This document shows, piece after piece, positions 28,613 to 47,895 of a stretch of 64,000 nt of DNA. Source of the DNA: Actinomycetota bacterium (GTDB taxonomy: Bacteria > Actinomycetota > Thermoleophilia > BMS3ABIN01); assembly GCA_023489275.1 (NCBI GenBank), contig JAMDDD010000009.1, forward strand, positions 436 to 64,435, read 5' to 3'. Numbering within the stretch: position 1 is the stretch's first letter; every line of letters starts with the position of its first letter. Both the position numbers and the translations under genes were made by a program. The notes beneath the pieces were generated by a model. That model was not told where the DNA came from. It did not search any database and worked only from the letters and a program-made list of their open reading frames with translations.

Positions 28613-29269
28613 TCAGGCGGCCCGGCGATATTCCTCTGGACGCACTTTTTCTTGTCCCATGGGAACCTCTTCACCACGCATCCGCATATTCATCGACGCA
28701 CCGACCAAGCCTCCGAAGACTGCCGTAAACAGACTCGCAATCGCTCCCACGAGAAACCAGCCGTTCATCGTAGAAGCGATACTGCCGGCGAGACTGAAGT
28801 CTCCGGGCGTAATAGCGGTCACGTTGGGCACGTAGGCATTAATTAGCGAGGTGGCATTGATGCCGAAGCCAAGAATGCCCGTGAAGCCCAGAATGCCCAG
28901 GGTAATGCCGGCAACGATCAAAAGCCCCCAGGTAGTCAGCCCTTGCCAGAGCCCGTTAAGGGACACCGGCGTTTTCTCCAGGGCCGCGGCCACCAGGGCG
29001 CCGAGGAACGTTGCGCCTGCCGCGCTGACAGCAACCCAGATGCCCACCGAGGTCAGAATCCCGTTCAGGCCGGTGAGCGACGCCACCGACGCGGCGCCCA
29101 CCCCCAGAAAACTGCCAAATGCGACGAACAGAAGCTCAAGCGCCAGCGCCACCAATGCGCCAGCGACAATCGCCCCGCCACTAATACGCTTCCGGAACTC
29201 CCCGACGGCACTCCGCGGCATCGATTCCTGGTACCAACTTCCCTCTTCTTGTATCCTGCTCGCTTCCAT
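28613..29269 (-). CDS. polytopic membrane protein, unknown function
   Basis: Gly/Ala-rich TM helices; start set at MEASRIQEEG. Confidence 0.4.
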   Translation of the reverse strand: MEASRIQEEGSWYQESMPRSAVGEFRKRISGGAIVAGALVALALELLFVAFGSFLGVGAASVASLTGLNGILTSVGIWVAVSAAGATFLGALVAAALEKTPVSLNGLWQGLTTWGLLIVAGITLGILGFTGILGFGINATSLINAYVPNVTAITPGDFSLAGSIASTMNGWFLVGAIASLFTAVFGGLVGASMNMRMRGEEVPMGQEKVRPEEYRRAA

Positions 29270-29578
29270 TTTGTCCTCCCTCCGTTTTCTTTTTCGTGGT
29301 CCCACAAATTTGCACCTTATAATCATTATCCTGACCAGTTTTTTAATAGTTAAACCATAATTTGGACAAATTTTGGATGAATTTAAACACGTAAAAATAC
29401 CTGCAATTCTACGTAATGATATTGCCCGGCTGCCCGAATGGTCGGGAGTTTGGTCAATCTTTTCCTGCCGCCGGAGAATTGGCGCCCCGGGGCTGGGGCG
29501 GAGTATAATACTAGTGTTAGTGCTTATTCAGAAATCCGTTGCTTGGATTAAATAGATTCAACATGCGGAGCCGTTCAT

Positions 29579-29936
29579 GGGGGCGACCTGGTTTCGACGG
29601 GGTCGATCTGGACGGGAGCAGCAAGCCGAGCTGCCGGCGGGCTCGTTAAACAGCCGGAAAACCTAAAGTAAACGCAGACAATAATCTCGCGTTAGCCGCT
29701 TAATTTAAGCGGCTCGTCGCCCCCGGTTCGTCCGTGACCGGGACCAGCGGCGTCAGATAGCGGACTACGCCACCGCGGCCGCCTCTCGCCGTAGTGCGCG
29801 AAGCCTTAGGGAGGCTGGCGAACCGGATCCGGTCTTCGCGGAGCCGGCGCGCGAGATTTAAAAGCGAAGACTAAGCTTGTAGCGGCTCCCCTTCGGGTGG
29901 CTTCGGACGCGGGTTCGATTCCCGCCGCCTCCACCA
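29579..29936 (+). ncRNA. ssrA: transfer-messenger RNA (tmRNA); predicted tag peptide ADNNLALAA (resume codon GCA at 29684, stop TAA 29701-29703)
   Basis: 5' end GGGGGCGACCTGGTTTCGACGGGG and 3' end GGACGCGGGTTCGATTCCCGCCGCCTCCACCA (tRNA-Ala-like acceptor/T-arm plus CCA); internal ORF ending LALAA-stop. Confidence 0.9.
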
Positions 29937-29949
29937 TCTTCCACACCTC

Positions 29950-30020
29950 TGAAAATGCCTTGTTTAAGGCATTTTTTGTTATCCGATATCGTAAGAAGCC
30001 GGCGGGAATCGAACTTGTCT
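29950..30020 (+). repeat. direct repeat A, copy 1 (~70 bp; second copy 35885-35955, ~88% identity); candidate island boundary/att
   Basis: CTGAAAATGCCTTGTTTAAGGCATTTTTTGTTATCCGATATCGTAAGAAGCCGGCGGGAATCGAACTT matches CTCAAAAATGTCTTGTTTAAGGCATTTCTTGTTCCCCGATATCGTAAACAGCTGGCGGGAATTGAACTT. Confidence 0.8.
29952..29982 (+). terminator. rho-independent terminator of ssrA
   Basis: AAAATGCCTTGTTTAAGGCATTTTTTGTT hairpin plus U-tract. Confidence 0.75.
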
Positions 30021-30053
30021 GGTTTTCGGAGGTCTGCCTCTTGCAAAGAAAGC

Positions 30054-30073
30054 AGTGATACTTTAGTATCACT
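30054..30073 (+). promoter_or_regulatory. perfect 9-2-9 palindrome abutting the phd start codon (candidate antitoxin operator)
   Basis: AGTGATACT-TT-AGTATCACT ends 3 nt before ATG 30076; TTGCAA -35-like hexamer upstream. Confidence 0.6.
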
Positions 30074-30075
30074 CT

Positions 30076-30333
30076 ATGCGAACCGAAATCGTTACAACTC
30101 TTAAGCGCCAAGCCACCAAGCTTCTCTCAGAACTGGAAAAGAGCAAGGAGCCCATCCTGATAACCCAACATGGGGTACCGAGCGCTTATCTGGTGGATGC
30201 CGAGACCTATGAAGCTCAACAGCGCCGGATGAGTCTTCTGGAGGGGATCGCCCGAGGGGAAAAGGCAGTCGAAGAGGGCCGCACTCTTTCTCACGCGCAA
30301 GCAAAGAAGCGCATGGCTCGATGGCTGAAATAA
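30076..30333 (+). CDS. Phd/YefM-family antitoxin
   Basis: 85 aa; ...PILITQHGVPSAYLVDAETYE... pattern typical of Phd/YefM; stop overlaps the parE start. Confidence 0.8.
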   Translation: MRTEIVTTLKRQATKLLSELEKSKEPILITQHGVPSAYLVDAETYEAQQRRMSLLEGIARGEKAVEEGRTLSHAQAKKRMARWLK

Positions 30334-30656
30334 TTTGGACTGAACCTGCGCTGGCAGATCTGGATGCCATCGCGGATTATATCGCGCTGGATAATCCGGA
30401 AGCGGCCAGGAAACTAGTCCGGAAGGTTTTTCGCCACGTGGGGCAATTGGCTGATCATCCCAAAAGCGGTTCAAAACCGCCTGAGTTGAAGGGATGGCGC
30501 TACCGGCAGATCGTTGAACCACCATGTCGGATCTTCTACCGGGAAGACGGTAGGCGTGTCTTTATTCTATATGTCATGCGAGGAGAGATGTCACTCCATC
30601 CTTCAGTTATTGATTCCCGCGACCAGACTCGAAGTGACGAAAACAATGGCCCATAA
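30321..30656 (+). CDS. ParE/RelE-family toxin
   Basis: 111 aa; ...WRYRQIVEPPCRIFYREDGRRVFILYVMRG... core. Confidence 0.75.
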   Translation: MAEIIWTEPALADLDAIADYIALDNPEAARKLVRKVFRHVGQLADHPKSGSKPPELKGWRYRQIVEPPCRIFYREDGRRVFILYVMRGEMSLHPSVIDSRDQTRSDENNGP

Positions 30657-31045
30657 GCGAAAAGGACAACTAACCCCCGCTCCCCAGTGGTGGAAGCATC
30701 TGCGTGCCTGGAAGCGCATCGCCAACAAACGCGAGCGCCGGGCAGAAAAACAAGGGATCAAGAGGGGGGCCTAAAATGGCTATCCCGGCTTTTCAGGATT
30801 TAATGTTGCCGTTACTAATATTTGCGAGCGACGGCCAAGAACATACACCGCGTGAAACAGTTGAAACACTGGCGGATGAATTCTCGCTGACCGAGGCGGA
30901 CCGGCAGGAGCTGCTGCCCAGCGGCCGGCAGGCGACTTTTGATAACCGGGTCGCTTGGGCTAAAGCTCATATGAAAATGGCGGGCCTCTTAAGCTCACCA
31001 AAGAGAGGTATTTACAGGATAACTGATCGCGGTCAGGAGGTTGTT
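30643..31045 (+). repeat. ~400-bp direct duplication (second copy 36826-37231, ~97% identity) covering the small basic ORF and the 5' third of mrr
   Basis: Near-identical nucleotide runs read in both places; divergence after ...GATCGCGGTCAGGAG. Confidence 0.85.
30646..30774 (+). CDS. small highly basic protein (42 aa), duplicated at 36829-36957
   Basis: MAHKRKGQLTPAPQWWKHLRAWKRIANKRERRAEKQGIKRGA conserved in both copies with synonymous/conservative changes only. Confidence 0.45.
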   Translation: MAHKRKGQLTPAPQWWKHLRAWKRIANKRERRAEKQGIKRGA

Positions 31046-31683
31046 AAACAAGCGCCGCAAAGAATTGATCTGAGATTTCTTAGGCAGTTTCCGGAATATA
31101 TTGAAGCCAGAACTAAAAAGAAGGGTGCCGATAATCTCTCCGATGAGTCGAGGAAAAGACGGGCAGGACTCCGGAAGAGTCAATGGAAGCCGCATATAGA
31201 CATATCAACAACGATCTTGAAAGTGAAATACTGCAGACTATTAAAAGCTGCTCACCACGTTTTTTTGAACAGCTGGTTGTCGATTTGATTGTCAGGATGG
31301 GATATGGTGGCTCCCGGCAGGATGCAGGCAAGGCTGTTGGCAAAAGCGCCGATGGTGGAATCGACGGTATCATCAAGGAAGACAAGTTAGGCTTGGATAA
31401 CGTGTATATTCAGGCCAAGAAATGGGAGAACTCTGTCAGCAGGCCTGAGATACAAAAATTTGCTGGCGCGCTACAGGGCCATCGAGCAAGAAAAGGAATA
31501 TTTATCACAACTTCTTCATTTACAAATGGCGCAAGGGAATACGTAGCCGGGATTGAAAGCAAGATAGTTCTGATAGACGGCGATGAGTTGGCGGAGCTGA
31601 TGATTGATTTCGAAGTGGGCGTTTCGACTATTGCGTCTTACAATGTGAAAAAAATTGATATGGACTATTTTACGGAAGATTAA
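30776..31683 (+). pseudogene. mrr: Mrr-family type IV restriction endonuclease, disrupted by a frameshift near 31150-31160
   Basis: N-terminal Mrr_N winged-helix (MAIPAFQDLMLPLL...) in one frame to ~31150; Mrr catalytic domain (D..GIDGI...QAKKW) continues in another frame from 31147 (..TPEESMEAAYRHI..). Confidence 0.75.
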
Positions 31684-31857
31684 CGACTTGCCTTGGCAAT
31701 CCGCTCCAGCCGGCTCAAAATACATAGCTCAGAGTTCGAATACCGTTGCACCGCCTCCATCATTTTCCAGCCTCTCAAAAATGCCGTGATAACATTATAT
31801 TATTATCCTGCAAGTAAAATTGGGAAGGAAGAAATACCCTATGGCGGTGGCAATAAG

Positions 31858-31998
31858 ATGCAAAAATGTCTACCAATTCTATTCCTCTGCGTCATCATAG
31901 GGTTTTTGGCGGCGACATTAGGAACAGTAGCATTTATTGTTATCTCAATTTTAGTTATATTCTTTATTGGCAGTTATTCAAACAGGCGGAGGAAGTGA
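31858..31998 (+). CDS. tiny hydrophobic peptide (46 aa) in AT-rich island DNA (speculative)
   Basis: MQKCLPILFLCVIIGFLAATLGTVAFIVISILVIFFIGSYSNRRRK, single TM. Confidence 0.2.
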   Translation: MQKCLPILFLCVIIGFLAATLGTVAFIVISILVIFFIGSYSNRRRK

Positions 31999-32045
31999 GA
32001 AATAATAATGGGCAGAAAAGCTGACCCAAACAATACCAGCTCTCA

Positions 32046-32146
32046 AAAATGCCGGGGTATAGGGATGTGCAGTGCGTGGACCACTTTCGACCTGTACAAC
32101 TCTAGCATCTTGTCAAGTCGAAGGGGTGTGTAATCCGCCAGGCTTC
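32046..32146 (+). repeat. inverted repeat B, copy 1 (~100 bp; inverted partner 35790-35890, ~95% identity)
   Basis: GGGTATAGGGATGTGCAGTGCGTGGACCACTTTCGACCTG...AATCCGCCAGGC present as reverse complement at 35790-35890. Confidence 0.8.
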
Positions 32147-32484
32147 AGCTAATCTCAGACCTTTATCAAGTATCTCTAGTGAGGATGATTCAGTCAGGTT
32201 TGGCGGGGTTTGGGAGGACGTGGAGTCGAAAAGGTGTGGATCACAAATCGGGAAGAAGTTAAATCACGACACCACTGCTTCAGTGCCTGCCCGAATCTTT
32301 AAGCCTCTCCATCATGGAGGAACTCAGCCTTCGTCTGCCATTAAGCACGGCCCTCAGGTTAGCGGGGGTCTCTTCGGGTGCGGAATCTTCTATAAGTAGG
32401 GATTAGGTTGATTGGTAGGCTAAGCGCATACCAATCTTGACCCCTTGGACCCGTCTTTCGACTACCAGTCTTGCCCGGCATCAG

Positions 32485-32584
32485 TACATGCTCGTGAGCT
32501 GATCCCATTATGGGCCATAGCACTTTCAAGGCTCACCTCCTGGAAAAGCATTATTACACGCTTGTGAGCTGATCCCATTATGAG
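32485..32584 (+). CRISPR. possible degenerate CRISPR relic: two 30-nt repeats (32485-32514, 32555-32584; 3 mismatches) separated by a 40-nt spacer
   Basis: TACATGCTCGTGAGCTGATCCCATTATGGG versus TACACGCTTGTGAGCTGATCCCATTATGAG; a Cas1 fragment lies 2.6 kb away; only two units, so weak. Confidence 0.3.
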
Positions 32585-33923
32585 AATCGTTACCGTCGAT
32601 CAACCAGGAGTTGTTCACAAGCTCGAACGTATAGTCCAGCGTCCAGTCGTCGCAGGTATCGCCGTTCGGCCCATAATCCGCATCCTGCGTGCTCGTGAAG
32701 GTAACAAACACCTTCAGCGTTGCTGCGTCCAACGGTGTCATGCTATGGATGGCGACGTTGAAATCGTGGCTTGTGGCATCAGCGCCGGCCAAATGTTCGA
32801 TGCTGCCCACCCGCTGCTGGCCCGCCGGCGTGAATTGTTGCCACACCATCTGCCAGTCCCCAGTGTTGATGCCCCAGAAGTAGGCCCCCAATGTCGCTGC
32901 TACATCGCTGGCGCCGGGCTGTGCGGCCAGTTCGCTCGGGACTGCGATCGGAACAGAGTCATGTGACAGACTCGGAGACGAGGTAGTCGGCGAGGGAAAT
33001 GAGCTGTTCGCTTGCGGTGAGCTGCTCGTCGTCCTTAGTGCCAATCTGCCTGGCGAGGCCACCGCGGCCGCTGAAGGCGTCGCTGGTGATGTCGTTTTGT
33101 GACGATCATTTAGCACGAAGAGACCGTATGTAATAACAAACGCCGCAGTGAAAACGATGACAAAGATGACGAGCACCACGATCGGTGTGTGTCTTCGGCT
33201 GCGCCCCAGGCCGGGGGGTGACTGTAAGCCGCCTTGCGTCTCTAGTCCTTTGCCAAACGAAGTAACCGCGCTTTGCAGAACGATCGTGCGGTCACACATC
33301 TCTGCCAGGCGGGGGTCATGGGTGACGACAATCACGGGAACCTTCTGTGCCAGCACCTTGAACAAACCGGCAACCTCGGCCATCAGGCCTGGATCGAGGT
33401 TAGCGGTCGGCTCGTCAGCGATGACAAGTTCAACGTCACGGGCGAGCATGCGGGCGATGGCGACCCGCTGGCGCTGGCCACCGGAAAGGCTACCGATCTT
33501 GCGCTCAGCGAAGTCATTGAGATCAACTTGGTTAATACTTGACTCTATACGAGCAGGGCGCCACTCTGAGGGCACCTGAGCGTCACTGAGATCTTGCTCC
33601 AGTGTCCGTTTCGGTGTCCAGTTGGCAAGCAGGCCAAAGTCCTGTGGGATGAGGCCAATGCGCCTCAGTTGGCGCTGGCGATCGGCATCGCGGCGTAGCT
33701 CCTGCCAGTCGGTGCCAAGCACCTTGACAGTGCCCTCGTAGGGTTCCTGCAGGGTGCCGGCAAGTAGCTCGACGAGGGTTGTCTTACCGGCACCACTGGG
33801 GCCGGTAATGGCAATCAGACCACTGCCACTGATATCGAGGAAGGGGATGCGCAAGACGTCTTCCTGCGTGTCCGCATAGCGATAGCGCAAGTCGCGAATC
33901 GTGATCAGTGGGGTGCTCATCAC
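32526..33923 (-). CDS. ABC ATPase (FtsE/MacB-type) fused to a TM helix, Ser/Thr/Pro-rich linker and ~130-aa extracytoplasmic domain
   Basis: Walker A GPSGAGKTT, signature LSGGQRQRVAIARML, Walker B LVIADEPTANLD, H-loop VTHD; then IVVLVIFVIVFTAAFVITYGLFVL TM and C-terminal domain; the last ~20 codons read through the CRISPR-like repeats so the true stop is uncertain. Confidence 0.7.
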   Translation of the reverse strand: MMSTPLITIRDLRYRYADTQEDVLRIPFLDISGSGLIAITGPSGAGKTTLVELLAGTLQEPYEGTVKVLGTDWQELRRDADRQRQLRRIGLIPQDFGLLANWTPKRTLEQDLSDAQVPSEWRPARIESSINQVDLNDFAERKIGSLSGGQRQRVAIARMLARDVELVIADEPTANLDPGLMAEVAGLFKVLAQKVPVIVVTHDPRLAEMCDRTIVLQSAVTSFGKGLETQGGLQSPPGLGRSRRHTPIVVLVIFVIVFTAAFVITYGLFVLNDRHKTTSPATPSAAAVASPGRLALRTTSSSPQANSSFPSPTTSSPSLSHDSVPIAVPSELAAQPGASDVAATLGAYFWGINTGDWQMVWQQFTPAGQQRVGSIEHLAGADATSHDFNVAIHSMTPLDAATLKVFVTFTSTQDADYGPNGDTCDDWTLDYTFELVNNSWLIDGNDSHNGISSQACNNAFPGGEP

Positions 33924-33935
33924 GAAACTCCGCTG

Positions 33936-34511
33936 CTATCCTTTACGCAGCATTGCCGGGCTGATGTTGGTCGATCGCCAGGCGGGAAGCAGGGTCGCTG
34001 CCAGAGCAAGCACGATTGTCACCGGAAAGGCAGCCAGCAAGGAGACCAAGTTGAAGGCCACCGGCAGCACGGTCGTCTGGCGCAAGATGCCCGCCGCCAG
34101 GATGCCTAAGGCTTCGCCGACTAGGCCGCCGATCAAACAGGGGTAGAACATAGCGATGAGAAACTCGCGCAGCAGGCGCGAGCGCAACACACCGCTCTGA
34201 CGGCGCACAGCGATCTCCTCGCGGCGGTTGCGCATTACAGTGACGCCGAGAGTAAAAGTAGCGGCGGCAGTTTGGCTTAGCATGGCAGCCACCACGACGA
34301 TTGTGAGTACGGTAAGGATTTGCTCGACTAGGGCAGTGTTCACAGCCTGCGTGTGCTCGACATTCGGGTTGTCAACTAGGTGGGTGATCTTCTCTGCCAC
34401 GCCAAATGCAACACTCATCAGCAAGACGGAGAAGAACACCCCTATAAAAACGGCGATGGCGGCTGCCGCCTGCCAGGGTTCACGATGATGGATTTTTACT
34501 TGAGCAGGCAC
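33936..34511 (-). CDS. minimal FtsX-family ABC permease (no periplasmic domain)
   Basis: 191 aa, 4 TM, FtsX signature RNRREEIAVRRQSGV. Confidence 0.65.
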   Translation of the reverse strand: MPAQVKIHHREPWQAAAAIAVFIGVFFSVLLMSVAFGVAEKITHLVDNPNVEHTQAVNTALVEQILTVLTIVVVAAMLSQTAAATFTLGVTVMRNRREEIAVRRQSGVLRSRLLREFLIAMFYPCLIGGLVGEALGILAAGILRQTTVLPVAFNLVSLLAAFPVTIVLALAATLLPAWRSTNISPAMLRKG

Positions 34512-34514
34512 GAA

Positions 34515-34757
34515 TCACTCTTTGTTCGTGGATTGAGCAGATGATTGAATAACAGATTTAAAGATGCTTATCACTCCGAAGAATAAAATAACCCCCGACA
34601 GGGCCATGAGGCTCAAATACACAGGCTCCTTGAGGTAGAAGTTTCTCCCCTGCTCCACCATCATCAGTTCATCGCCAAGACCTGAAGGGGGCCGTACGGA
34701 ATAAACGGCGATCAATCCGATGGCACCTATCACGAGCAGAATGACGCCCTTTTTCAT
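34515..34757 (-). CDS. small two-TM membrane protein, first gene of the ABC operon
   Basis: 80 aa, two hydrophobic helices; sits downstream of a 450-bp AT-rich promoter region. Confidence 0.4.
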   Translation of the reverse strand: MKKGVILLVIGAIGLIAVYSVRPPSGLGDELMMVEQGRNFYLKEPVYLSLMALSGVILFFGVISIFKSVIQSSAQSTNKE

Positions 34758-35212
34758 AGTTTCCTCACATTCATTGATTAGGTCACTGAATCATAATTAT
34801 TCAGTTTCATATCGTCAGCATTGTTAAGCTCTACCCACGTAATATGATTAAACCTCAAACATGATTTTAGAATGCCTTTTGTAATTATCTTTCTGCTTGG
34901 GTGAAGTCCCAATTCTGTTGTAAATTTGCTTTCCGGTAGACTGACTCATCCTAGCCGATTTTGACTAGCTTCCCGTTTTGTTTTTCTTCCTGCCGTTCCT
35001 TCCACTCAAAGTATTCCGTCATGTCGAAGTAACGCGTGCCAGTTGAACAACACTTCTTGAACTTCAGATTCCTTCGTCGAGCCAGTAGGAGAGCATCTTT
35101 AGCAGTAATGCTTTTTAACATTGCTTGACTAGGTCAGTAGAAAATGCAAATAAAGCTACGTGCCTAATTTATCATGGAATTGTCAGGCTGCAAATTTTTT
35201 TCTAGTTTAGAG

Positions 35213-35569
35213 TTACGTTGGAGTTACCATGTTTCTGTTACCATCACAGAGCCCCTTTGAACTATGATTCCCAGGTTGCGCACACTTCGTCAATGTGTCT
35301 ATCGCGGCCTCAAGAGAAGCCACCGATGCCGAGATGCTTTGCACCACCAGCCGTGCCACCTCTGGATGAAGCCGGCACACCCCCTTTTTATCAATCACGA
35401 AGTCCCTGGGCGTGAACGTCTGCGAACAAACAAACGCCAGCACCTCTCGGTCCACCTTTGGTCGGTGCGACTCCATGAGATCATTAACGAAAGAATCCCG
35501 CCCCTCCCGGCAGACATGCAGGAAGCCGATCGTCGGATCAAGGCCAACCTCGGAGATAGCAAAGCGCAC
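35213..35569 (-). pseudogene. cas1: Cas1 C-terminal fragment (CRISPR integrase remnant)
   Basis: GLDPTIGFLHVCREGRDSFVNDLMESHRPKVDREVLAFV...DFVIDKKGVCRLHPE matches the conserved Cas1 block GLdPylGflH...slvlDLMEpFRPlVDr.vl; N-terminal two-thirds absent. Confidence 0.6.
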
Positions 35570-35620
35570 CTGACTTTCAAGGAGGGCGTATGAGATGGTC
35601 CAGCTTTCGTGGACACTTTT

Positions 35621-35760
35621 TTAAGGCTCCTGCTGCTCCAGCCAACGCTCCTCAAACTTCTTCGGGCTGACATATCCGAGCGACGAATGCAGCCGGTTTG
35701 AGTTGTAATACATCTCGATGTAGTCAACTATATCTCTTGTTGCCTCCTCTCGGCTATGGT
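35621..35760 (-). mobile_element. IS3-family transposase OrfB C-terminal fragment
   Basis: ...YHSREEATRDIVDYIEMYYNSNRLHSSLGYVSPKKFEE matches the OrfB tail and the other IS3 copy at 41840-42491. Confidence 0.7.
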
Positions 35761-35884
35761 AGCGGCGGCCGCGCACCTGGTCAGATTTAGAGCCTGGCGG
35801 ATTGCACACCCCTTCGACTTGACAAGATGATAGAGTTGTGCAGGTCGAAAGTGGTCCACGCACTGCACATCCCTATACCCGCCC

Positions 35885-35955
35885 TCAAAAATGTCTTGTT
35901 TAAGGCATTTCTTGTTCCCCGATATCGTAAACAGCTGGCGGGAATTGAACTTCCG
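35885..35955 (+). repeat. direct repeat A, copy 2
   Basis: See copy 1 at 29950-30020. Confidence 0.8.
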
Positions 35956-36082
35956 TTCCAACGACTCTCATAAAAACACAAAGCCCAGTCAATAATTTCA
36001 GTTGACAGAATGCTGGCAAATAAATCCGCAGCATTCATAAGATGTCCGCATGAAGATATAATGGCTTTCAAAAGGAATATGC

Positions 36083-36409
36083 ATGGGGAATCTGACAACA
36101 AATGAGAAAAAGGCTTTAACTGACTTTCGCGATGTCCTGGTTGCAGACTTCGGCGCGTTAGACGTCCGCCTTTTCGGGTCTCGTGCGCGTGGCGAGGGCG
36201 ATGAAGAGTCGGATCTGGATGTTTTTATCGTCCTTCCTCAAATTGACTGGGAACTGGAGAAGAAAATTTACGGCCTCTCCTTTGATATTAGTCTGGGACA
36301 CGCTGTGCTTATTTCTCCGATTCTCTATTCTCAAAGTGATATCGAAAATCCATCCATAATGATTTCGCCTCTTTACAAGACCGTTCTGCGAGAGGGCGTG
36401 AAGATTTGA
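36083..36409 (+). CDS. minimal nucleotidyltransferase (MNT) antitoxin of a HEPN/MNT pair
   Basis: GSRARGEGDEESDLDVFIV polbeta-type NTase motif; 108 aa; 4-nt overlap with HEPN gene. Confidence 0.8.
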   Translation: MGNLTTNEKKALTDFRDVLVADFGALDVRLFGSRARGEGDEESDLDVFIVLPQIDWELEKKIYGLSFDISLGHAVLISPILYSQSDIENPSIMISPLYKTVLREGVKI

Positions 36410-36798
36410 ATGATGACTTGAGAAGCCTCGTGGAATATCGACTTGATGAGGCACATGAATCGATTGAAGAAGCAGTTCTCTTGCTGCATGATGGTAAACC
36501 ACGCGGCGCTTTAAGCCGGGCGTATTATGCGATGTTCTACGCAACCCTTGCGTTGCTCGCAATAAAGGAGCTGGGTGCATCAAAGCATTCGGGTGTTATT
36601 CGCCTGTTCCACGAACATTACGTGCAGGATGGAACATTCGAAAAGGAAATTGCTCGCTCGCTGAGCGTTGCCTTTGATCTCAGAAACAAATCGGATTATC
36701 GCGAACTGATTTCACCTTCCCGTGAAGAAGCACAGGATACGCTTGAAGCAGCGAAAAAGTTTGTGGCCGAGGCAGAGCGGGTCGTCGCGCAAAGATAA
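36406..36798 (+). CDS. HEPN-domain toxin
   Basis: 130 aa helical protein with R-x4-6-H-like motif RNKSDY; paired with MNT. Confidence 0.75.
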   Translation: MNDDLRSLVEYRLDEAHESIEEAVLLLHDGKPRGALSRAYYAMFYATLALLAIKELGASKHSGVIRLFHEHYVQDGTFEKEIARSLSVAFDLRNKSDYRELISPSREEAQDTLEAAKKFVAEAERVVAQR

Positions 36799-36828
36799 AT
36801 ACGGCGAACGATATCGTGAGGGCAAGCA

Positions 36829-36957
36829 ATGGCTCATAAGCGAAAAGGACAACTAACCCCCGCTCCCCAGTGGTGGAAGCACTTGCGTGACTGGAAGCGC
36901 ATCGCCAATAAACGCGAGCGCCGGGCAGAAAAACAAGGGATCAAGAGGGGGGCCTAA
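36829..36957 (+). CDS. second copy of the small basic 42-aa protein
   Basis: Identical architecture to 30646-30774. Confidence 0.45.
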   Translation: MAHKRKGQLTPAPQWWKHLRDWKRIANKRERRAEKQGIKRGA

Positions 36958-36958
36958 A

Positions 36959-37276
36959 ATGGCTATCCCGGCTTTTCAGGATTTAATGTTGCCGTTACTA
37001 ATATTTGCGAGCGACGGCCAAGAACATACACCGCGTGAAACAGTTGAAACACTGGCGGATGAATTCTCGCTGGCCGAGGCGGACCGGCAGGAGCTGCTGC
37101 CCAGTGGTCGGCAGGCGACTTTTGATAACCGTGTCGCTTGGGCTAAAGCTCATATGAAAATGGCAGGCCCCTTAAGCTCACCAAAAAGAGGTATTTACAG
37201 GATAACTGATCGCGGTCAGGAGACAGTTAACCGGAGTTATTACACGGCAACGAATGTGCGTCTGAGTTCTGCATGA
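36959..37276 (+). pseudogene. mrr: truncated second copy of mrr (Mrr_N domain only)
   Basis: MAIPAFQDLMLPLLIFASDGQEHTPRETVETLADEFSL... identical to the first copy up to 37231, then diverges and terminates. Confidence 0.7.
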
Positions 37277-38688
37277 AGGGGACGATGCACTGATAGATAT
37301 TTTCGCATAGCATCAATAATCCGTTCAGGCCGATTTTCGCGAATGCGGCCATATTTCTGAGGTACCCCTTGCGGAGTGACGAATGCCGCTGTATAGCTCC
37401 GGCCGGGCCGAACCTCTTCAATGCCTGCAAACAGTTTTTGAATACGGCGTCCCGGGGGGTTCTCTATTTTGAAGTAGACATTAAGACCGAGACAGCGCTT
37501 GACATATCCTCCCATCTGCTCATACGGATCGCATGAAAACGTCCTTTCAAGATTCTCCTCCAGCATCGCCCTGATTTCCTCTCCTGTTAGCTCTACTGTT
37601 GAGACAGGCGGATTCATGGGAATAATGTTGTAAAGGTCATTCAAGGTTATCTGTCCTGGAACTATTGGTGCGCCGTAGCGCCAGCCATTCGAAAATGCCA
37701 ATTGCGCCCCCGTGTTTTCGAGCAGGGTCTTAAGGAGGAAATTGTCCATAGTAGCTTCCAAAGTTGTTCCCCTGTTGAGCGCTGTGACAGTTTCACCGAC
37801 AACCTCTGCGAGATCATTCTTATAGGGTGCGAGTGCCTGTCTTATCAGTTCATCTACTGTGGGGTCAGGTTGCGTGGCTGCTTCAACCTCAATCAACCGG
37901 TGCCGGTAATCTACGATTTGTCCACCGACCACCTCCAGGTCCAGGCGACCCAAAAAAGAACCATGGCAGCCTGACTGTATAACAATAGTTTTCCCATTGA
38001 GAACCGGTTTATAAAGACGGTTATGGGTGTGACCGCTGAGACAAATATCTATGCCGTGCACCTCGGACAAAAGCTTCATTTCCTGAGGGAACCCGAGGTG
38101 CGAGACCAAGACAACGAAGTCCACCTTTTCTTGAGTGCGCAGCACATCGATAATTGGCGGAAGTTCATCCTTGCCCAGGGTAAAGGATATGCCTTCGCTG
38201 TAGGAGGGCGGCATGGTCTTGTCCACGATATTTGAGGCTATCCCCACAAGGCCGATCCGTAATCCGCCGATCTCTTTTACGACATACGCCTGAAAGACCG
38301 GTTTGCTTGTCTCTTTTTCGTAGACATTGTTTGCCAGCATCGGATATTCAAGCTCGGTGGCCCGCTGCTGGAATACCCTCGGGCCATAAGCAAATTCCCA
38401 GTGTGCCGTCATGGCATCAAGTCCCAACGAATTCAAGATAGGGATCAAATCCCGGCCCTGGGTGTTCAGGGCAGGATAGGTGCCGTGTATGGTATCGCCG
38501 CAGTCGCAAAAGAGAACGCGCCCCTGGCTCTCAGCCCGAATCTGTTTTACGATCGCGGCGATGCGGGCGTAACCACCCGCAAGACGGTATACAGCGCGGG
38601 CGCCCTGCCAAAACATTTCCTGGTGTAAATCAAAATAGGCGTGGCTGTCATTCATTTGAACTATTGTGAACTTGTTACTCCCGCTCAT
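37240..38688 (-). CDS. bifunctional metallophosphatase/5'-nucleotidase
   Basis: Calcineurin-like motifs (VQMNDSHAY, GDTIHG, GHTHN) plus 5'-nucleotidase C-terminal domain; start set at MSGSNKF. Confidence 0.75.
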   Translation of the reverse strand: MSGSNKFTIVQMNDSHAYFDLHQEMFWQGARAVYRLAGGYARIAAIVKQIRAESQGRVLFCDCGDTIHGTYPALNTQGRDLIPILNSLGLDAMTAHWEFAYGPRVFQQRATELEYPMLANNVYEKETSKPVFQAYVVKEIGGLRIGLVGIASNIVDKTMPPSYSEGISFTLGKDELPPIIDVLRTQEKVDFVVLVSHLGFPQEMKLLSEVHGIDICLSGHTHNRLYKPVLNGKTIVIQSGCHGSFLGRLDLEVVGGQIVDYRHRLIEVEAATQPDPTVDELIRQALAPYKNDLAEVVGETVTALNRGTTLEATMDNFLLKTLLENTGAQLAFSNGWRYGAPIVPGQITLNDLYNIIPMNPPVSTVELTGEEIRAMLEENLERTFSCDPYEQMGGYVKRCLGLNVYFKIENPPGRRIQKLFAGIEEVRPGRSYTAAFVTPQGVPQKYGRIRENRPERIIDAMRKYLSVHRPLHAELRRTFVAV

Positions 38689-38807
38689 TCCTATCCCCTC
38701 ATTTCCGTTAGTCCATTGTGTCCTTTTGGGGAATTCAACCACCGCAAATTAGGAACCGAACATACGCAATGTGTCAGGTATAACGCAAAAAGTATTATAG
38801 TCTGTCC

Positions 38808-39563
38808 ATGAATTTCATTGCCTTAATTATCGGTGCTGTTACCGGTTTCGTTTCTGCTTTTTTTGGCATTGGCGGGAGCAGTATTGACACACCTGTAATC
38901 AGAACTTTCCTGGGTCTTCCACCGCTGCAGTCACTGGCAACGCCCCTGCCTCTCACCGTGCTTACCGCCTCCATTGCCATGTTTGCTTATCGCAAGGGGC
39001 ATCTGGCAGATTATCGCATCACTGGCTTGAGCCTGATAACAGCGGTGCCGGGGGTAGTGTTTGGTTCATTGTTGACTGCCTATATTCCCGGCCAGTTCCT
39101 GATGCTGCTGACCGCGGTGGTGCTGGCTCTCGTGGGGATAGATTTTATCGTCAAGGATTTCACAGAAAAAACCCTGGTAATCAGCAAGCCAAGAAAGAGG
39201 GCGCCCGCCTGGCAGATTTTACTGGTGGCCGGATTCATCAGCATTCTGTCGGGCGTACTTGCCAATGGCGGTGGAATTTTCTTCGTCCCGGCGTTTGTTG
39301 TTCTTTTCCGCCTGCGGATAAAGGAGGCAATCGCTACCTCATTGCCGCTAGTGCTGATCCTGGCGCTGCCCGGAAGCGCCGTTCAACTCGCCCTGGGTCA
39401 CGTGGACCTGGCGACGATGGCGACGATGGCAATCGGCGTTGTTCCGATGGCCTTTATCGGCGCCAAGCTGGACATCCACACCCGATCAAAGATGGTTATG
39501 CTCCTTTATGGTGTGGTCATGCTTGTTTTTGCCGTCTATTTCTTTGTCAGCCAATTAAGATAG
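38808..39563 (+). CDS. TauE/SafE (DUF81) family sulfite/anion exporter
   Basis: 251 aa, two-repeat 4+4 TM topology with GxGGG motifs (FGIGGSSI, ANGGGIFFVP). Confidence 0.7.
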   Translation: MNFIALIIGAVTGFVSAFFGIGGSSIDTPVIRTFLGLPPLQSLATPLPLTVLTASIAMFAYRKGHLADYRITGLSLITAVPGVVFGSLLTAYIPGQFLMLLTAVVLALVGIDFIVKDFTEKTLVISKPRKRAPAWQILLVAGFISILSGVLANGGGIFFVPAFVVLFRLRIKEAIATSLPLVLILALPGSAVQLALGHVDLATMATMAIGVVPMAFIGAKLDIHTRSKMVMLLYGVVMLVFAVYFFVSQLR

Positions 39564-39647
39564 TGTCATGCTGGGGTTAAAGCCAGTCAAGGGGGCTAAT
39601 TACCCTTTTGCAAGAGTATCGTAAAAGAGGAATTCAAGGAGGAAACA

Positions 39648-40259
39648 ATGACCGGCGATGAACCCAACGACCAAAACAGCCACGACCACAGCCACGACCC
39701 CGGCCATGACCCCAATACCCATGACCGCCGCTTCCATGGCCAACCGGAACGGTTGCGATCGGCTGAGAGGTTGGCACTGCTGGAAGTGGAGCGCGTGGTT
39801 GCTTTGAGCCTGGAGGACCTGCGGGTAAATAGCGCTCTGGACGTAGGCTGCGGCACGGGCCTGTTTACCGAGGCATTCATCAACGCGGGCGTGGAGGCGA
39901 CCGGAATTGACGCCAATGCAGAAATATTAGCTATCGCCCGTAGTCAGGTGCCAGCGGCTCAATTCCGGGAAGCTCCGGCGGAAAAGCTGCCTTTTGACGC
40001 AGGTGTCTTCGATCTGGTGTTTCTTGGCCACCTGCTGCATGAAACCGATGAGCCACTGGCGGCTCTAAAGGAGGCGCGCCGGGTGGCAAAAGGCAGGGTA
40101 GTGGTGCTGGAATGGCCCTACCGACGCGAACAGCAGGGGCCACCGCTGGCGCACCGACTTCGGCCGGAGGCGATTGAAGATCTTGCCCACCGGGCGGGTT
40201 TTGGCGAGGCAGAGCGCATCCAGCTTAAGCACATGGATCTCTACCGGTTTGAGCCCTGA
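39648..40259 (+). CDS. class I SAM-dependent methyltransferase with His/Asp-rich N-terminal tail
   Basis: Motif I LDVGCGTGLFTEAF, motif post-I IDANAE; N-terminus NDQNSHDHSHDPGHDPNTHD. Confidence 0.7.
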   Translation: MTGDEPNDQNSHDHSHDPGHDPNTHDRRFHGQPERLRSAERLALLEVERVVALSLEDLRVNSALDVGCGTGLFTEAFINAGVEATGIDANAEILAIARSQVPAAQFREAPAEKLPFDAGVFDLVFLGHLLHETDEPLAALKEARRVAKGRVVVLEWPYRREQQGPPLAHRLRPEAIEDLAHRAGFGEAERIQLKHMDLYRFEP

Positions 40260-40342
40260 CCGGTAACAGATCGCCCCGTGTATGAGATTTGGGGCCTCGT
40301 TGAGAAAACAGGCTGGGCCGGAAACTAACGGGGGCTCTTCAG

Positions 40343-40527
40343 CTGAAAATCAGGGATTTGATCAGGCTGATCGAGGAAGATGGCTGGCAACAAACAAGGA
40401 CCAGGGAAGTCACCGCCAGTACCGGCACCCCACGAAGAAGGGAACCGTAACCATTGCTGGAAAACCGAGTTCAGATATTCCTCCTGGTACAATGGCGAGC
40501 ATTCTCAAGCAGGCTGGGCTAAAATAG
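40343..40527 (+). pseudogene. hicA: HicA-family mRNA-interferase toxin, apparent 1-nt deletion near 40404
   Basis: N-terminal half KIRDLIRLIEEDGWQQTRTR in one frame (from 40343) and GSHRQYRHPTKKGTVTIAGK...ILKQAGLK in the -1 frame; junction falls in a G-run (AGGGAAG). Confidence 0.65.
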
Positions 40528-40548
40528 GAACGTGGAAGGGGGCAGATT

Positions 40549-40752
40549 ATGAAATATATGGTCGTGATTGAAAAGGGAGAAACCGGCTACGGAGCCCATG
40601 TTCCCGATTTGCCCGGCGTTATTGCTGCCGGAGAAACCCGGGAGGAAGTTTTAAAACTTGTCAAGGAAGCAATCGAATTTCACATCGAAGGGCTTCATGA
40701 AGCAGGTGACCCTGTGCCTCCGCCATCATCCAGCGGCGAATTATTGAAGTAG
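40549..40752 (+). CDS. hicB: HicB-family antitoxin (N-terminal domain only)
   Basis: MKYMVVIEKGETGYGAHVPDLPGVIAAGETREEVLKLVKEAIEFHIEGL matches the UPF0150/HicB fold. Confidence 0.75.
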   Translation: MKYMVVIEKGETGYGAHVPDLPGVIAAGETREEVLKLVKEAIEFHIEGLHEAGDPVPPPSSSGELLK

Positions 40753-41131
40753 ATGCTGCCGCGTAATCCTGTCCATGATTGAAGCCACTATCCAAGACTG
40801 GGTAAAGCGCTTTCGGCTCAGTAGTGGCGATGATCTCACTGGGTTCATGATTGACTGCGACGCCTATCTCTGTGAGGAAGCTTTCTTGTCAGTCGAAGTC
40901 AACAAATCGAACGATTTCGAATTTGACAATCTGACTAAATTGAGGTAGTTAAACTAACGCCACCTTTCATCCTTTCGTCATACACAACTTTCGAGCATAG
41001 CTCGTATCTTTTTAGCAAAAACCAGATAATAAATCTGAAACAGTTAATTTGACATAACAGGAAATGCCCTAATATATTTCTGACCTGGAAAAAAGAAACA
41101 GATCGTTAACCTAAAGTCCGGGGGGTTAGTA

Positions 41132-41692
41132 ATGAAACTCAAGCTCCTTTTAGCGGCCTTGGCGTCGATCATTGTTTGGGCACTGCTTTCCAGCGCCGCA
41201 ACTGCTCAGACTCAAAACAACGTCGGCCCGTCGCCAACAATTAACCCGACGCATGCTCCTCCTGGAGGCAGTTTTACCATTTCAGTGTATTACAGTTCAG
41301 GTGGCCCAGGCGCGTCTCCCCCTTATTATTACTGGGATCAGTACGATAATACGCACACGAACGCAAACCTGCTAGGCGCCGGCTCCTGGCCATCTACCCC
41401 GCAACAAAACTACACCAGCATCGCAAACCTCACCGTTCCGGCTGATGCTACCGTGGGCCAGCATCAAATTTTGATGTTTCAGCCGGTGTCAGTTGTTACT
41501 GAACCGCCTGTCCCAGGACCAACCTGTGCGAGCTTCACCGTTGACCCGCCTAGCGTCCAGCAAAGCGCCTACAGCAACGCCGCCCCGGCCACAACGCTGC
41601 CTAGCACCGGCTTTTTCCTCCTGATTCCCGCCGCCGGACTGGGCGCCGGCGGGTTGGGCGCAGCCATGCTCAGGCGACGGCGCCGCGGCTAG
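41132..41692 (+). CDS. secreted sortase substrate (LPXTG-type cell-wall anchor)
   Basis: Signal peptide MKLKLLLAALASIIVWALLSSAATA; C-terminal LPSTG + hydrophobic stretch + RRRRRG. Confidence 0.7.
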   Translation: MKLKLLLAALASIIVWALLSSAATAQTQNNVGPSPTINPTHAPPGGSFTISVYYSSGGPGASPPYYYWDQYDNTHTNANLLGAGSWPSTPQQNYTSIANLTVPADATVGQHQILMFQPVSVVTEPPVPGPTCASFTVDPPSVQQSAYSNAAPATTLPSTGFFLLIPAAGLGAGGLGAAMLRRRRRG

Positions 41693-41839
41693 ATCAGAAA
41701 CATACTACCTGGCTTCAGGGTGGCCTCCTTAAATAATTTAGCCGGGGTGAAAATAAGAGAACCTTTGATGCGCTGAGTCAACCAGGTATTTAAGATAGAT
41801 AAGCTCGAATTGACCTGGCCTGGTAATAGTGGACACTCA

Positions 41840-42491
41840 GCTAAGCCGCTTTTCCAAGATACCACATTTCCTCAAACTGACGGGGGCTGACATATCCCAG
41901 CTAGGAATGCAGCCTTTTTGAGTTGTAGAACATTTCCAGATAATCAACGATATCTCTTTTGGCTTCTTCCCTGGTCTGGTAGCTTCGCCAGGATACCCGT
42001 TCCGTCTTGAGGGTACCGAAGAAGCTCTCCGCCACGGCGTTATCCCAGCAATCGCCTTTGCGGCTCATGCTGGAGACGGCGCCGGACTGTTTCAGCAGTT
42101 TCTGAAACTCGTGGCCGCAGTACTGGGAGCCCCGGTCGCTGTGCAGGATAAGGCCGTCCGCCGGCCGCCGGCGCCAGATGGCCATCTGAAAGGCGTCCAT
42201 GACCAGCTCCTGGGTAATGCGACCGCTCATGGCCCAGCCCACCACCTGGCGGGAGAACAGGTCCAGGACCGTTGCCAGATAGAGCCAGCCTTCACGGGTC
42301 CATACGTATGTGATGTCCGAGACCCAGGTACGGTTGGGCGCCGCCACTTCAAAGTCACGGTTAAGCAGATCGGAGCCAACCGCCACGAGGATCTGGTTTA
42401 GCGCCGTTTCGGCAAGACCCTGAAGACCACTGTCGCTTACCAGCAGCTCTTTAACTTGCTCGCCGTTCAGGTTAATCTGATACGCGGTCAT
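41840..42491 (-). mobile_element. IS3-family transposase OrfB (DDE integrase core) with in-frame TAG, no OrfA present
   Basis: ...[14 protein letters not shown]...HSDRGSQY... DDE region; RLHS-TAG-LGYVSP interruption; upstream region lacks OrfA. Confidence 0.75.
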
Positions 42492-42704
42492 CGCTTCCTC
42501 CTATAGTTGGCTTCTTGCTCGAAACCAATCTATCGGAAAAGCGATGGCCGTTTCTACAACCCAGGCTTGGAATTTACAGCAGTATAGGGGCACGACCCTT
42601 GTGGCAAGTGATCGTCTGCATATTTTTGACATTTCGCCTATAATGGCCATATCATGAATGCACCATTTTTTTTCTTCTTGTAACGTAGGCAGACTGACAG
42701 GTGC

Positions 42705-44831: not shown

Positions 44832-44894
44832 CCTCTCACGGTGGCCATCTTGACAAACTCAGTCCGGGCCCATATGCTGCCAATCATTACATAG

Positions 44895-45080
44895 CTTCAG
44901 CCTGTGAGTCGCTGAAAGGCGCTTGAGGGAAACCGGTGAAATACCGGTGCGGTCCCGCCACTGTAACTGGAAGCTTTGCGTGTAGTCGGTCCCGTTCGGA
45001 TCGAGTCACTGGGTAATAAACCCGGGAAGGCTAGCAGCAAAGCAAAATCCAGAAGCCAGGAGACCTGCTCACAGGCTCTA
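44895..45080 (+). promoter_or_regulatory. cobalamin (AdoCbl) riboswitch
   Basis: Conserved core GGGAAACCGGTGAAATACCGGTGCGGTCCCGCCACTGT and B12-box AGCCAGGAGACCTGC (45054-45068) upstream of cbiM. Confidence 0.8.
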
Positions 45081-45196
45081 GTCAAGAAACTCTCCGAGGA
45101 GGGAGTGGCTAGGGTTCTGCATCGGCCTTATCTATTAAGCCTCCTTCTTCGGAAGGGGGCTTTGGTCATGTATAGGCAGCGACGTCAGGAGGCAGT

Positions 45197-45883
45197 ATGC
45201 ACATCGAAGACGGTATTTTACCGCCGGAGGCTTGGGGAACATGGTACGGAATTGCGGTCCTGTTTGTGCTACCAGGGCTGCGCGAAATAAGGCGGCGGAC
45301 GCGGGAAGCCCTGTCATACAAGCCCTTGCTGGCGATGGTCGGGGTCGCCGTATTTGTGATTTCAGCGATGCACCTGCCCGTACCCGTGACGGGCTCCTGT
45401 TCCCATCCAGTCGGCACGCCGCTGGCCGCAATCATTGTCGGTCCCTTCGCCACGGTCGTAATTACTACCATCGTCCTTTTTTTCCAGGCTATCTTCCTGG
45501 GGCACGGCGGCATCACCACCATTGGCGCCAACACTTTTTCGATGGGCATCGTCGGCGGTATCGGCGGCTACCTCTGCTGGAAAATGATGCGCTCATTTCG
45601 AAGCCCTATCTGGCTTGCCGCTGGCCTCGCTGGCCTTGCCGGCGATCTGCTCACTTACGTGACCAGTGCCTTTGAGCTGGCCTGGAGCCTGCATGGCAAC
45701 GTTTCCTTGTTTCATCAGTGGCTCGTCTTCTTCATGGGCTATGGACCGACCCAGATTCCGCTTGCCATCGGTGAGGCGGTTTTTAGCGCCGCCGTGCTTC
45801 AGGTTATGTTTAATCGCCGCCCTGATTTGTTGTACAGGATCAAGCTTGCCAGGGAGGCGAAGGTTAATGTTGCCGGTATCTAG
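45197..45883 (+). CDS. cbiM: cobalt ECF transporter substrate-capture component CbiM
   Basis: Characteristic N-terminus MHIEDGIL; 228 aa polytopic; AGGAGG RBS. Confidence 0.85.
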   Translation: MHIEDGILPPEAWGTWYGIAVLFVLPGLREIRRRTREALSYKPLLAMVGVAVFVISAMHLPVPVTGSCSHPVGTPLAAIIVGPFATVVITTIVLFFQAIFLGHGGITTIGANTFSMGIVGGIGGYLCWKMMRSFRSPIWLAAGLAGLAGDLLTYVTSAFELAWSLHGNVSLFHQWLVFFMGYGPTQIPLAIGEAVFSAAVLQVMFNRRPDLLYRIKLAREAKVNVAGI

Positions 45884-47010: not shown

Positions 47011-47019
47011 CGGGTAAAC

Positions 47020-47883: not shown

Positions 47884-47895
47884 GCGGCGCCGGTT

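Follow-up and report, generated by a model that had tools for sequence, protein, structure and literature searches.

A 64,000-nt stretch of contig JAMDDD010000009.1 (positions 436 to 64,435 of the forward strand, assembly GCA_023489275.1) from an Actinomycetota bacterium (GTDB Thermoleophilia; BMS3ABIN01) was analyzed and is referred to here as the window. Positions 32054-35881 of the window are very probably the 3.8-kb remnant of a casposon that lies behind the transfer-messenger RNA (tmRNA) gene. Casposons are self-synthesizing transposons with a Cas1-type integrase (casposase) and a family B DNA polymerase (PolB) of their own. The assignment is made because the inverted arms of the segment correspond to the ends of complete elements with Cas1 and PolB in related genomes, because a decayed 14-bp target-site duplication flanks it, and because it lies in the 3' region of the tmRNA gene, which harbours the element in sister genomes. 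The original prediction, which was made from the sequence alone, described the place as a destroyed CRISPR-Cas (clustered regularly interspaced short palindromic repeats and associated proteins) locus; the arms and the tmRNA gene, both absent from it, decided for the casposon.

The own assembly of the organism (code G000) has 1.58 Mb and is 92% complete. It was compared with 40 relatives (41 genomes with its own), and casposases were counted among 301 genomes of the class, G000 included. G002 is a sister species from the same genus.

Ends and layout of the relic

Read to the base from the repeat boundaries, the relic is 3,828 bp long (Table 1). A repeat search gave inverted arms at 32055-32144 and 35791-35880, 90 nt with 97% complementarity; read to the base they are 91 nt long. 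The terminal sequence of the repeat of this lineage is GGGGTATAGGG...; the repeat motif, with at most two mismatches, was found in 3 of the 41 genomes, all of the window's genus (two copies in G000, seven in G002 and two in G003); a control with the reversed pattern gave 0. A more diverged copy of the repeat stands directly behind the tmRNA gene of G001. The single pair of arms in the own genome is that of the relic. The conserved subterminal sequence is present at both ends of the casposon on contig C24 of G002 (G002:C24), in inverted orientation, and the right side of the relic is syntenic with the right flank of the same casposon (83.5% over 35851-36787). Within this right side, positions 35888-35952 are 88% identical to 29952-30016 behind the tmRNA gene.

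The order of repeat, variable genes and cas1 3' end is that of the Cas1-proximal end of the element elsewhere, where this part measures 2.7 kb (G002:C13), about 3.1 kb (G235) and 1.9 kb (G112). In the window the cargo position is occupied by an apparently intact operon for an ATP-binding cassette (ABC) ATPase, an FtsX-like permease and an 80-aa protein, which are presumed from this position to be casposon cargo. The original prediction had this operon overwrite the older locus; it lies within the transposon ends, at the place where the cargo varies. The C-terminal half of the ABC ATPase (aa ~230-465) consists of a membrane segment, a Ser/Pro-rich linker and a domain of ~160 aa without a Pfam match, and PADLOC returned generic ATPase matches only for the protein. 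Among the 40 relatives this C-terminal part occurs in one (G005), with 65% identity over aa 303-461. The G005 homologue has a different protein context, and only aa 303-461 match.

A family B polymerase is missing from the window element and from the whole own assembly, in which searches for homologues of PolB, p193, p170, p396/414 and the Mom-family and ParB-like proteins found none. Since the polymerase is absent here and present in relatives with the same ends, the window element is regarded as a deletion remnant and not as a working casposon.

Table 1. Positions of the casposon relic and of associated features in the window
Feature	Positions	Strand	Description
tmRNA gene (ssrA)	29579..29936	+	Tag peptide ADNNLALAA; ARAGORN; Rfam RF00023, 188.7 bits, E 3.4e-76
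Unoccupied primary target	29946..29959	+	CCTCTGAAAATGCC; 9 nt past the tmRNA CCA end; overlaps the 5' arm of the terminator hairpin
Degenerate displaced copy of the tmRNA 3' end	31701..31786	+	CCTCCATCA at 31754-31762, 9-nt spacer, target-like CTCTCAAAAATGCC at 31772-31785
Left target-site duplication	32040..32053	+	CTCTCAAAAATGCC; abuts the left inverted repeat
Left terminal inverted repeat	32054..32144	+	GGGGTATAGGGATGTGCAGTGCGTGGACCAC...; outer ~35-45 nt match the ends of complete G002 casposons
Conserved subterminal casposon sequence	32329..32410	+	83-84% identity to subterminal regions of G002:C24 and G001
ABC ATPase, 465 aa	32526..33923	-	PF00005, E 1.5e-29; presumed casposon cargo
FtsX-like permease, 191 aa	33936..34511	-	PF02687, E 6.2e-13; same operon
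Small hydrophobic protein, 80 aa	34515..34757	-	First open reading frame of the operon (from the reading-frame list); without Pfam match
Casposase C-terminal stump	35213..35590	-	Reading frame starts at 35569, homology up to 35590; PF01867
IS3-family 3'-terminal 207 nt	35591..35797	-	Inverted repeat TGAGATGGTCC... and last ~56 orfB codons; truncated, inside the casposase gene
Right terminal inverted repeat	35791..35881	-	Outermost base G, other ends C
Right target-site duplication	35882..35895	+	CCCTCAAAAATGTC; a tmRNA terminator region copy comes next, up to ~35957

Casposase stump

The open reading frame (ORF) at 35213-35569 on the minus strand encodes 118 aa and matches the Pfam family Cas_Cas1 (PF01867, E 3.8e-17, 62.8 bits), with stump aa 4-79 on profile positions 206-281 of 283; the whole-genome family search also finds the place (70.8 bits). 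The Cas1-family identity that the original prediction gave to this ORF was thus borne out by the profile. It had also recognized that the N-terminus is missing but put the loss at two-thirds: the stump aligns to residues 359-461 of a 463-aa G002 relative, by which ~78% is gone from the N-terminal side and the last ~22% is left. The nearest full-length relatives are the two casposases of G002, at L012:8882-10273 (463 aa, 72.8% identity) and L011:9980-11380 (466 aa, 72.5%). The Cas4-Cas1 protein of the organism's own CRISPR locus (contig C17) is only 27-34% identical to the stump.

In a maximum-likelihood tree of Cas1 proteins with 17 rows, from which the G003 fragment was left out as it has no overlap with the window stump, the stump falls into a 99/98 clade made up of three fragments and four proteins linked to a polymerase. 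The Cas1 proteins with such a linkage, eight in total, all belong to a 100/99 clade, and the own CRISPR protein to the opposite 100/99 clade. The sister clade is alphaproteobacterial (Kordiimonas, Rhodobacteraceae). Both G002 proteins have an N-terminal extension of ~135 aa with a CxxC...CxxxC motif, followed by the Cas1 domain (E 1.7e-48 and 5.8e-46). The top match of the 463-aa protein among solved structures is 6opm_A (E 1e-30), ahead of the CRISPR Cas1 4n06 (3.4e-24); 6OPM is named in the paper on the Methanosarcina mazei casposase structure (PMC6977970). The alignment covers chain residues 18-308 of 431 and G002 query residues 137-445 of 463, and the C-terminal part of the chain is unmatched.

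At an identity of at least 62%, casposases of this sublineage were found at seven places among the 301 genomes of the class. Two full-length copies are in G002 and one is in G235, the G110 sequence is interrupted by a contig end, and G000, G003 and G112 have fragments. A further fragment in G004 is recovered at a looser threshold only. An intact casposase of the window lineage was not found in the own 92%-complete assembly.

A second, distant casposase lineage (36-37% identity) exists in the same bacterial family, at L017 (G011:C1) 11350-18240 and L016 (G002:C36) 310-1893. Its G011 copy has a polymerase of its own (1063 aa), and G002 thus holds two casposase lineages.

Complete casposons in related genomes

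Each full-length G002 Cas1 gene of the sublineage is located a few kb from a gene for a family B polymerase of ~1010 aa. A homologue of this polymerase stands beside Cas1 at six of the seven full-length loci examined, namely the two G002 copies, G011, Kordiimonas sediminis, a Rhodobacteraceae metagenome-assembled genome (MAG) and an Eremiobacterota MAG; the linkage of Cas1 and PolB is kept across four phyla. The exception is G002:C36, of which 9 kb of sequence were examined. PF03175 matches all five aligned polymerases (best E 6.2e-9) and PF00136 two of the five. Invariant in their alignment are FDTET, FNLPFD, YxxxD, DFxSxYPT, KxxANSxYG and CDTDS, which are motifs of the exonuclease and polymerase activities in family B enzymes. 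The polymerase tail is helix-turn-helix (HTH)-like at the C-terminus (weak Pfam matches).

The G002:C24 element has 14,684 bp, begins 23 nt past the tmRNA CCA end and has a perfect duplication of 14 bp (CCTCTGAAAATGCC) on its flanks. The G002:C13 element has 11,686 bp and a perfect 15-bp duplication (GATTAATCAAACGCC). Both have GGGGTATAGGGATGTGCA... terminal inverted repeats, and both ends read GGGGTATAGGGATGTGCAnnnCGnnGACCAC in inverted orientation. An HNH nuclease gene is present in the G002:C13 copy (PF01844, E 8.9e-13), and none of the ORFs scanned in the C24 copy was positive for this domain. The published definition of a casposon combines inverted repeats, a duplication of 14-15 bp, Cas1 and PolB (PMC4046053, PMC6977970). 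The complete G002 elements bring together all of these features, and they are therefore casposons. With two intact copies, perfect duplications, and filled as well as empty tmRNA sites in one genus, the lineage looks mobile in the sister species; judged from these sequences, it is apparently active and site-specific in the sister genomes.

A different parent for the relic would be a pipolin, or another island at tRNA or tmRNA genes that moves by a tyrosine recombinase and merely carried Cas1. Such a parent could account for the encoded PolB and for the site at the tmRNA gene, since pipolins also use tRNA and tmRNA genes (PMC11551731). The ends are, however, inverted repeats with short duplications of 14-15 bp, not long direct att repeats, a recombinase domain was found in none of the 20 G002 ORFs scanned, and the linkage of Cas1 with PolB in four phyla speaks against a passenger. 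This parentage is considered extremely improbable, and the casposon remains the preferred parent.

The intact G002 casposons carry defence-like and DNA-modification cargo at L011 7573-9958 and 17051-18654 and at L012 5865-7540 and 10567-13901; it includes AbiJ_NTD4/DUF7014, a DUF4062 protein (PADLOC PDC-S60), a NYN nuclease, TPR, Mom-family and ParB_N-like proteins. A further copy of 15.65 kb is situated behind a tRNA-Ile gene in G235:C2 (L038+L039, about 36396-52048); its 14-bp duplication is perfect. The polymerase of this copy gives matches in more than one frame, several in all, and is thus probably frameshifted, and more repeat-like sequences were seen near this copy at local positions 2380 and 4966.

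The tmRNA gene as target site

The terminator hairpin of the tmRNA gene was located at 29952-29975 (-9.4 kcal/mol, z -5.3). The flanks of the 14.7-kb G002 casposon map to the window up to position 29959 and from position 29946 onward, and their overlap is exactly the 14 bp duplicated around that casposon. Because the two flanks overlap in this way on an uninterrupted window sequence, the primary site behind the window's tmRNA gene is empty.

The relic lies 2.1 kb from the tmRNA gene, with a Phd/ParE pair and a frameshifted Mrr gene in between. The displaced copy of the tmRNA 3' end (31701-31786) is orthologous, with 81.6% identity, to a partial tmRNA copy of G002 (L012 16262-16347) after which a solo repeat follows. 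In the 268-nt segment from this displaced copy to the left repeat, a direct repeat of 19-20 nt, CCAGC(C)TCTCAAAAATGCCG, was found.

In all seven tRNA-side junctions examined, the repeat of the lineage begins 23-24 nt past the CCA end: at the tmRNA gene (G002, G001), at the displaced tmRNA 3' copy (G002), at tRNA-Ala(GGC) (G003, G002:C17), at tRNA-Ala(UGC) (G112) and at tRNA-Ile(GAU) (G235, with the perfect 14-bp duplication CTTCGACAACGTTT). An eighth end, in G002:C6, lies about 25 nt past a degenerate ..TCCACCA. As the duplicated sequences vary between targets, the conserved tRNA-like part upstream is the likely determinant of the target. Archaeal casposases are described to require about 30 bp of the tRNA gene (PMC6977970). 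An alanine-type acceptor stem, common to the tmRNA and tRNA-Ala genes (..CCTCCACCA), was initially considered as the target and was dropped in view of the tRNA-Ile junction, which has the same geometry.

Further features of the locus may be traces of insertions. An AT-rich stretch of ~254 nt (31787-32039) lies between direct repeats of the casposon target (31767-31786 and 32036-32054) and encodes a hydrophobic peptide of 46 aa (31858-31998) without a Pfam match. Its place is exactly between the displaced tmRNA-end copy and the left repeat, and it is possibly what remains of a second insertion into this target. A unit of ~92 nt recurs at the locus (29925-30016, 31701-31788 and 35881-35957). It comprises the last ~12 nt of the tmRNA, the terminator and a further 60 nt or so in which the T-arm is present as an inverted copy, and small cassettes (Phd/ParE, MNT/HEPN, Mrr) separate the units. 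Three such units stand 1-1.6 kb apart behind the tmRNA gene in G005:C13 (L027 2869-2960, 1812-1903 and 210-301; also L028). The arrangement looks like a series of mini-islands accreted at ssrA, or like a cassette array there, and no integrase is seen nearby. The gene for an Mrr-type restriction enzyme (type IV, methyl-directed) is split into two overlapping ORFs, Mrr_N (30704-31288) and Mrr_cat (31183-31683), and is probably frameshifted; a second Mrr copy (36887-37276) is 97% identical over 300 nt (36824-37123) and is cut at about 37240 by a 5'-nucleotidase gene.

Insertion sequence fragment and decay of the element

The stump abuts the tail of an IS3-family OrfB gene, as the original prediction had stated. 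The ORF at 35621-35863 on the minus strand matches rve_2 from aa 26 (E 1e-9), and the outer end of the insertion sequence (IS) at 35591 is the base next to the end of the Cas1 homology (35590). The OrfB tail with rve_2 and a terminal repeat that begins with TG mark the fragment as a member of the IS3 family. It is 88% identical to positions 1984-2190 of the own contig C30. The heptanucleotide AGCCTGG (35791-35797) is common to the end of the IS homology and the start of the right arm.

From these boundaries, an IS3-family element would have inserted at about codon 360 of the casposase gene. One deletion, with the 7-nt microhomology at its junction, may then have started within the IS, ended 90 nt short of the right casposon terminus and taken with it the remaining IS sequence, the N-terminal part of the casposase, the polymerase and all else in between. 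An IS insertion followed by a single deletion is the simplest decay history that we infer, and the IS end at 35591 and the junction at 35791-35797 agree with the destruction by IS insertion and deletion foreseen in the original prediction. The survivors are the ABC-transporter operon at the cargo end, the casposase stump and the IS tail. The relic is unable to move by itself.

It was also considered that the arms are the ends of an IS3-type element or of a miniature inverted-repeat transposable element (MITE), with the Cas1 stump as an unrelated passenger. The inner end of the right arm abuts the OrfB tail, and the arm holds a TG...GGACCAC motif, both in keeping with such ends. Yet the IS has another end (TGAGATGGTCC..., which it has in common with the C30 copy), and the arms have counterparts at either end of complete elements that encode Cas1 and PolB and have duplications of 14-15 bp, which leaves hardly any probability for IS or MITE ends. 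The initial idea that the arms are IS3 ends was dropped on these two grounds: their match with the G002 element ends and the different end of the IS.

Being a remnant, the relic could still be a non-autonomous mini-casposon, with intact ends and ABC cargo, that a casposase mobilizes in trans. The 97% complementarity of the arms over 90 nt, with the conserved terminal ~30 nt kept, and the intact casposases of the lineage in the genus would permit this. It is nevertheless unlikely, as the own assembly holds no intact casposase of the lineage and a single pair of arms, the duplication has decayed and the terminal base of the right arm has changed, and a second copy of the relic or of the ABC operon was not seen in the relatives searched.

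For the casposon itself, the following course of insertion is proposed. The casposase would have joined the 3' ends of the element to a site 9-10 nt downstream of the tmRNA CCA end, where it probably read the tRNA-like T-arm and acceptor as a leader, in the way archaeal casposases read tRNA ends, and gap repair would have given the 14-bp duplication. Later, an island with the Phd/ParE toxin-antitoxin pair and Mrr may have integrated into the 3' end of the tmRNA gene and moved the former end, with the casposon, 2.1 kb downstream. This later integration, which we infer from the present arrangement, is the least certain step.

Repeat pair and the CRISPR-Cas locus of the organism

The original prediction derived the stump, together with a pair of near-identical repeats, from a CRISPR-Cas locus that decayed in place and left a relic of two repeats. 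The pair exists, at 32478-32512 and 32548-32582, as direct repeats of 35 nt (31 of 35 positions, 89%, identical) with a period of 70 nt, and, together with the Cas1 profile match of the stump, this spacing is what can be said for such a locus. It has two copies only, one of them coding, and does not form an array. The second copy (32548-32582) is part of the 3' coding sequence of the ABC ATPase gene and encodes ..SHNGISSQAC..; because the G005 homologue keeps HNGIS.Q.C at this stretch, the copy is ordinary coding sequence. The other copy is found 70 nt further, past the stop codon of the ATPase gene. The pair is not a CRISPR but the product of a local duplication in which the 3' coding end of the ABC ATPase gene was copied.

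The searches for related repeats agree. BLAST of both copies against the 1.58-Mb own assembly returned these two only, and the 121-nt stretch with both copies was matched in none of the 40 relatives, so that the array copies expected elsewhere in the genome or in its relatives are absent. Tandem Repeats Finder reported nothing in 31500-36500, and Rfam at E<=1 found in 29000-38000 the tmRNA only and no CRISPR repeat family. Neither cas2 nor other cas genes, among them cas4 or a remnant of an effector gene, were found among the ORFs and Pfam matches of 30000-39000. A real CRISPR array is present in the own genome on contig C17, with six copies of an unrelated 36-nt repeat. The CRISPR-Cas locus to which it belongs (C17:19609-20009 and L013 9512-19241) looks intact and encodes Cas2, a fusion of Cas4 and Cas1, a protein of the GSU0053 family and a Cas3 whose HD domain is C-terminal; this composition is that of the type I-G (formerly I-U) kind. 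Since the stump groups with the polymerase-linked casposases and not with CRISPR Cas1, and the relic is bounded by casposon inverted repeats, the CRISPR-Cas parentage was abandoned; a CRISPR-Cas locus decayed in place is judged very improbable.

Observations that weigh against the casposon interpretation

Several observations count against the reading of the segment as a casposon remnant. The window copy is without polymerase, so its casposon nature rests on the homology of its ends and of the stump to the elements of other genomes. All genomes are draft metagenome assemblies, and several elements lie at contig ends. The two copies of the window duplication, CTCTCAAAAATGCC and CCCTCAAAAATGTC, agree at 12 of 14 positions and are thus imperfect, and the terminal base of the right arm deviates (G for C). 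The left arm has no tRNA-like end directly before it, since the 268-nt segment intervenes. The stump points to the tmRNA side, and the G002:C24 copy has the opposite orientation. The G002:C13 copy lies away from tRNA-like genes and is an exception to the target rule; its empty site was sought in the window, where the region is not present. The ABC operon was seen in none of the other casposon copies, and its status as cargo follows from position.

As to the polymerase, single-sequence Pfam matches are marginal (DNA_pol_B with 23.4 bits against a cut-off of 23, DNA_pol_B_2 below the cut-off), and a search against the PDB sequences, with the polymerase alone and as a five-member profile, gave zero matches, as did NCBIfam. 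As these two databases gave nothing, the identification of the polymerase rests on Pfam and the conserved motifs.

Comparison with known systems

The published bacterial casposons form family 3, with StrAlb-C1, HenMar-C1, NitAL212-C1 and AceAut-C1 (Krupovic et al. 2014, PMC4046053; 2016, PMC4779613); StrAlb-C1 is actinobacterial (PMC4046053). The lineage described here resembles this family in its bacterial host, in the combination of Cas1, PolB and HNH (the last seen in G002:C13), and in inverted repeats with a duplication of ~15 bp. The Cys-rich N-terminal extension of the G002 Cas1 proteins recalls the N-terminal zinc-binding domain of NitAL212-C1 (PMC4046053), and the sister clade is alphaproteobacterial, the class that supplies most family 3 members in the published sets considered. 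The likeness is drawn from host, sister clade and features. The window copy differs from the published members as it is a relic only. In the literature considered, to which the supplementary target-site tables of PMC4046053 and PMC4779613 do not belong, no paper was found with a casposon at a tmRNA or tRNA-Ala gene, and no tRNA or tmRNA target is given for bacterial casposons.

Family 2 comprises archaeal casposons such as AciBoo-C1 and that of Methanosarcina mazei, whose casposase structure is 6OPM (PMC6977970). Like the present lineage, these have duplications of 14-15 bp; they enter at tRNA gene 3' ends and depend on the upstream part of the tRNA for targeting, and solo repeats, tandem copies and inactivated copies are heaped at one site in Methanosarcina (PMC4779613, PMC6977970). 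The end of the lineage, ...TATACCCC-3', recalls the M. mazei end 5'-TATATCCC given in a figure legend (PMC6977970). The HTH-like C-terminal tail of the polymerase (weak Pfam matches) is a further likeness. A C-terminal HTH fused to Cas1 is a criterion of family 2 (PMC4046053); the G002 casposase is without one, as the 6opm_A alignment ends at residue 308 of 431, near the end of the protein. The duplication starts 9-10 nt past the CCA end in the present lineage, whereas that of family 2 overlaps the last 4-7 nt of the tRNA, and the host is bacterial.

With the CRISPR adaptation module (Cas1-Cas2 and array) the element has in common the homologous Cas1 fold and the catalytic block (GxLH...DLxE); it differs in having no cas2 and no array, in a Cas1 of another clade and in its transposon architecture. 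Islands at tRNA and tmRNA genes, and pipolins, likewise use the tmRNA 3' region, where toxin-antitoxin and restriction genes accrete, but they have tyrosine recombinases and direct att repeats, and the relic has inverted ends and a short duplication.

Significance

In annotation, a solitary fragment of Cas1 is easily taken for a dead CRISPR-Cas system. Here it is debris of a transposon, and the island and the ABC genes are consequently read differently. Within one genus, the lineage is present as intact copies, as relics and as solo ends, and its target sites occur both filled and empty. The target rule, 23-24 nt behind the CCA of tRNA-like genes, is simple and testable. It is possible, though put forward with considerable reserve, that the relic belongs to an undescribed lineage of bacterial casposons which, as archaeal family 2 does, reads tRNA-like 3' ends (here of tmRNA, tRNA-Ala and tRNA-Ile) but inserts at a fixed offset of 9-10 nt past the CCA end with a duplication of 14-15 bp, that a casposase of this lineage could still mobilize the relic, and that the tmRNA flank is a bacterial 'casposon graveyard' as in Methanosarcina. 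Casposase biochemistry in the literature considered is that of archaeal enzymes, and the lineage would offer a natural bacterial system for the question of how a Cas1-type integrase measures from a structured leader, a question that also arises in CRISPR spacer integration.

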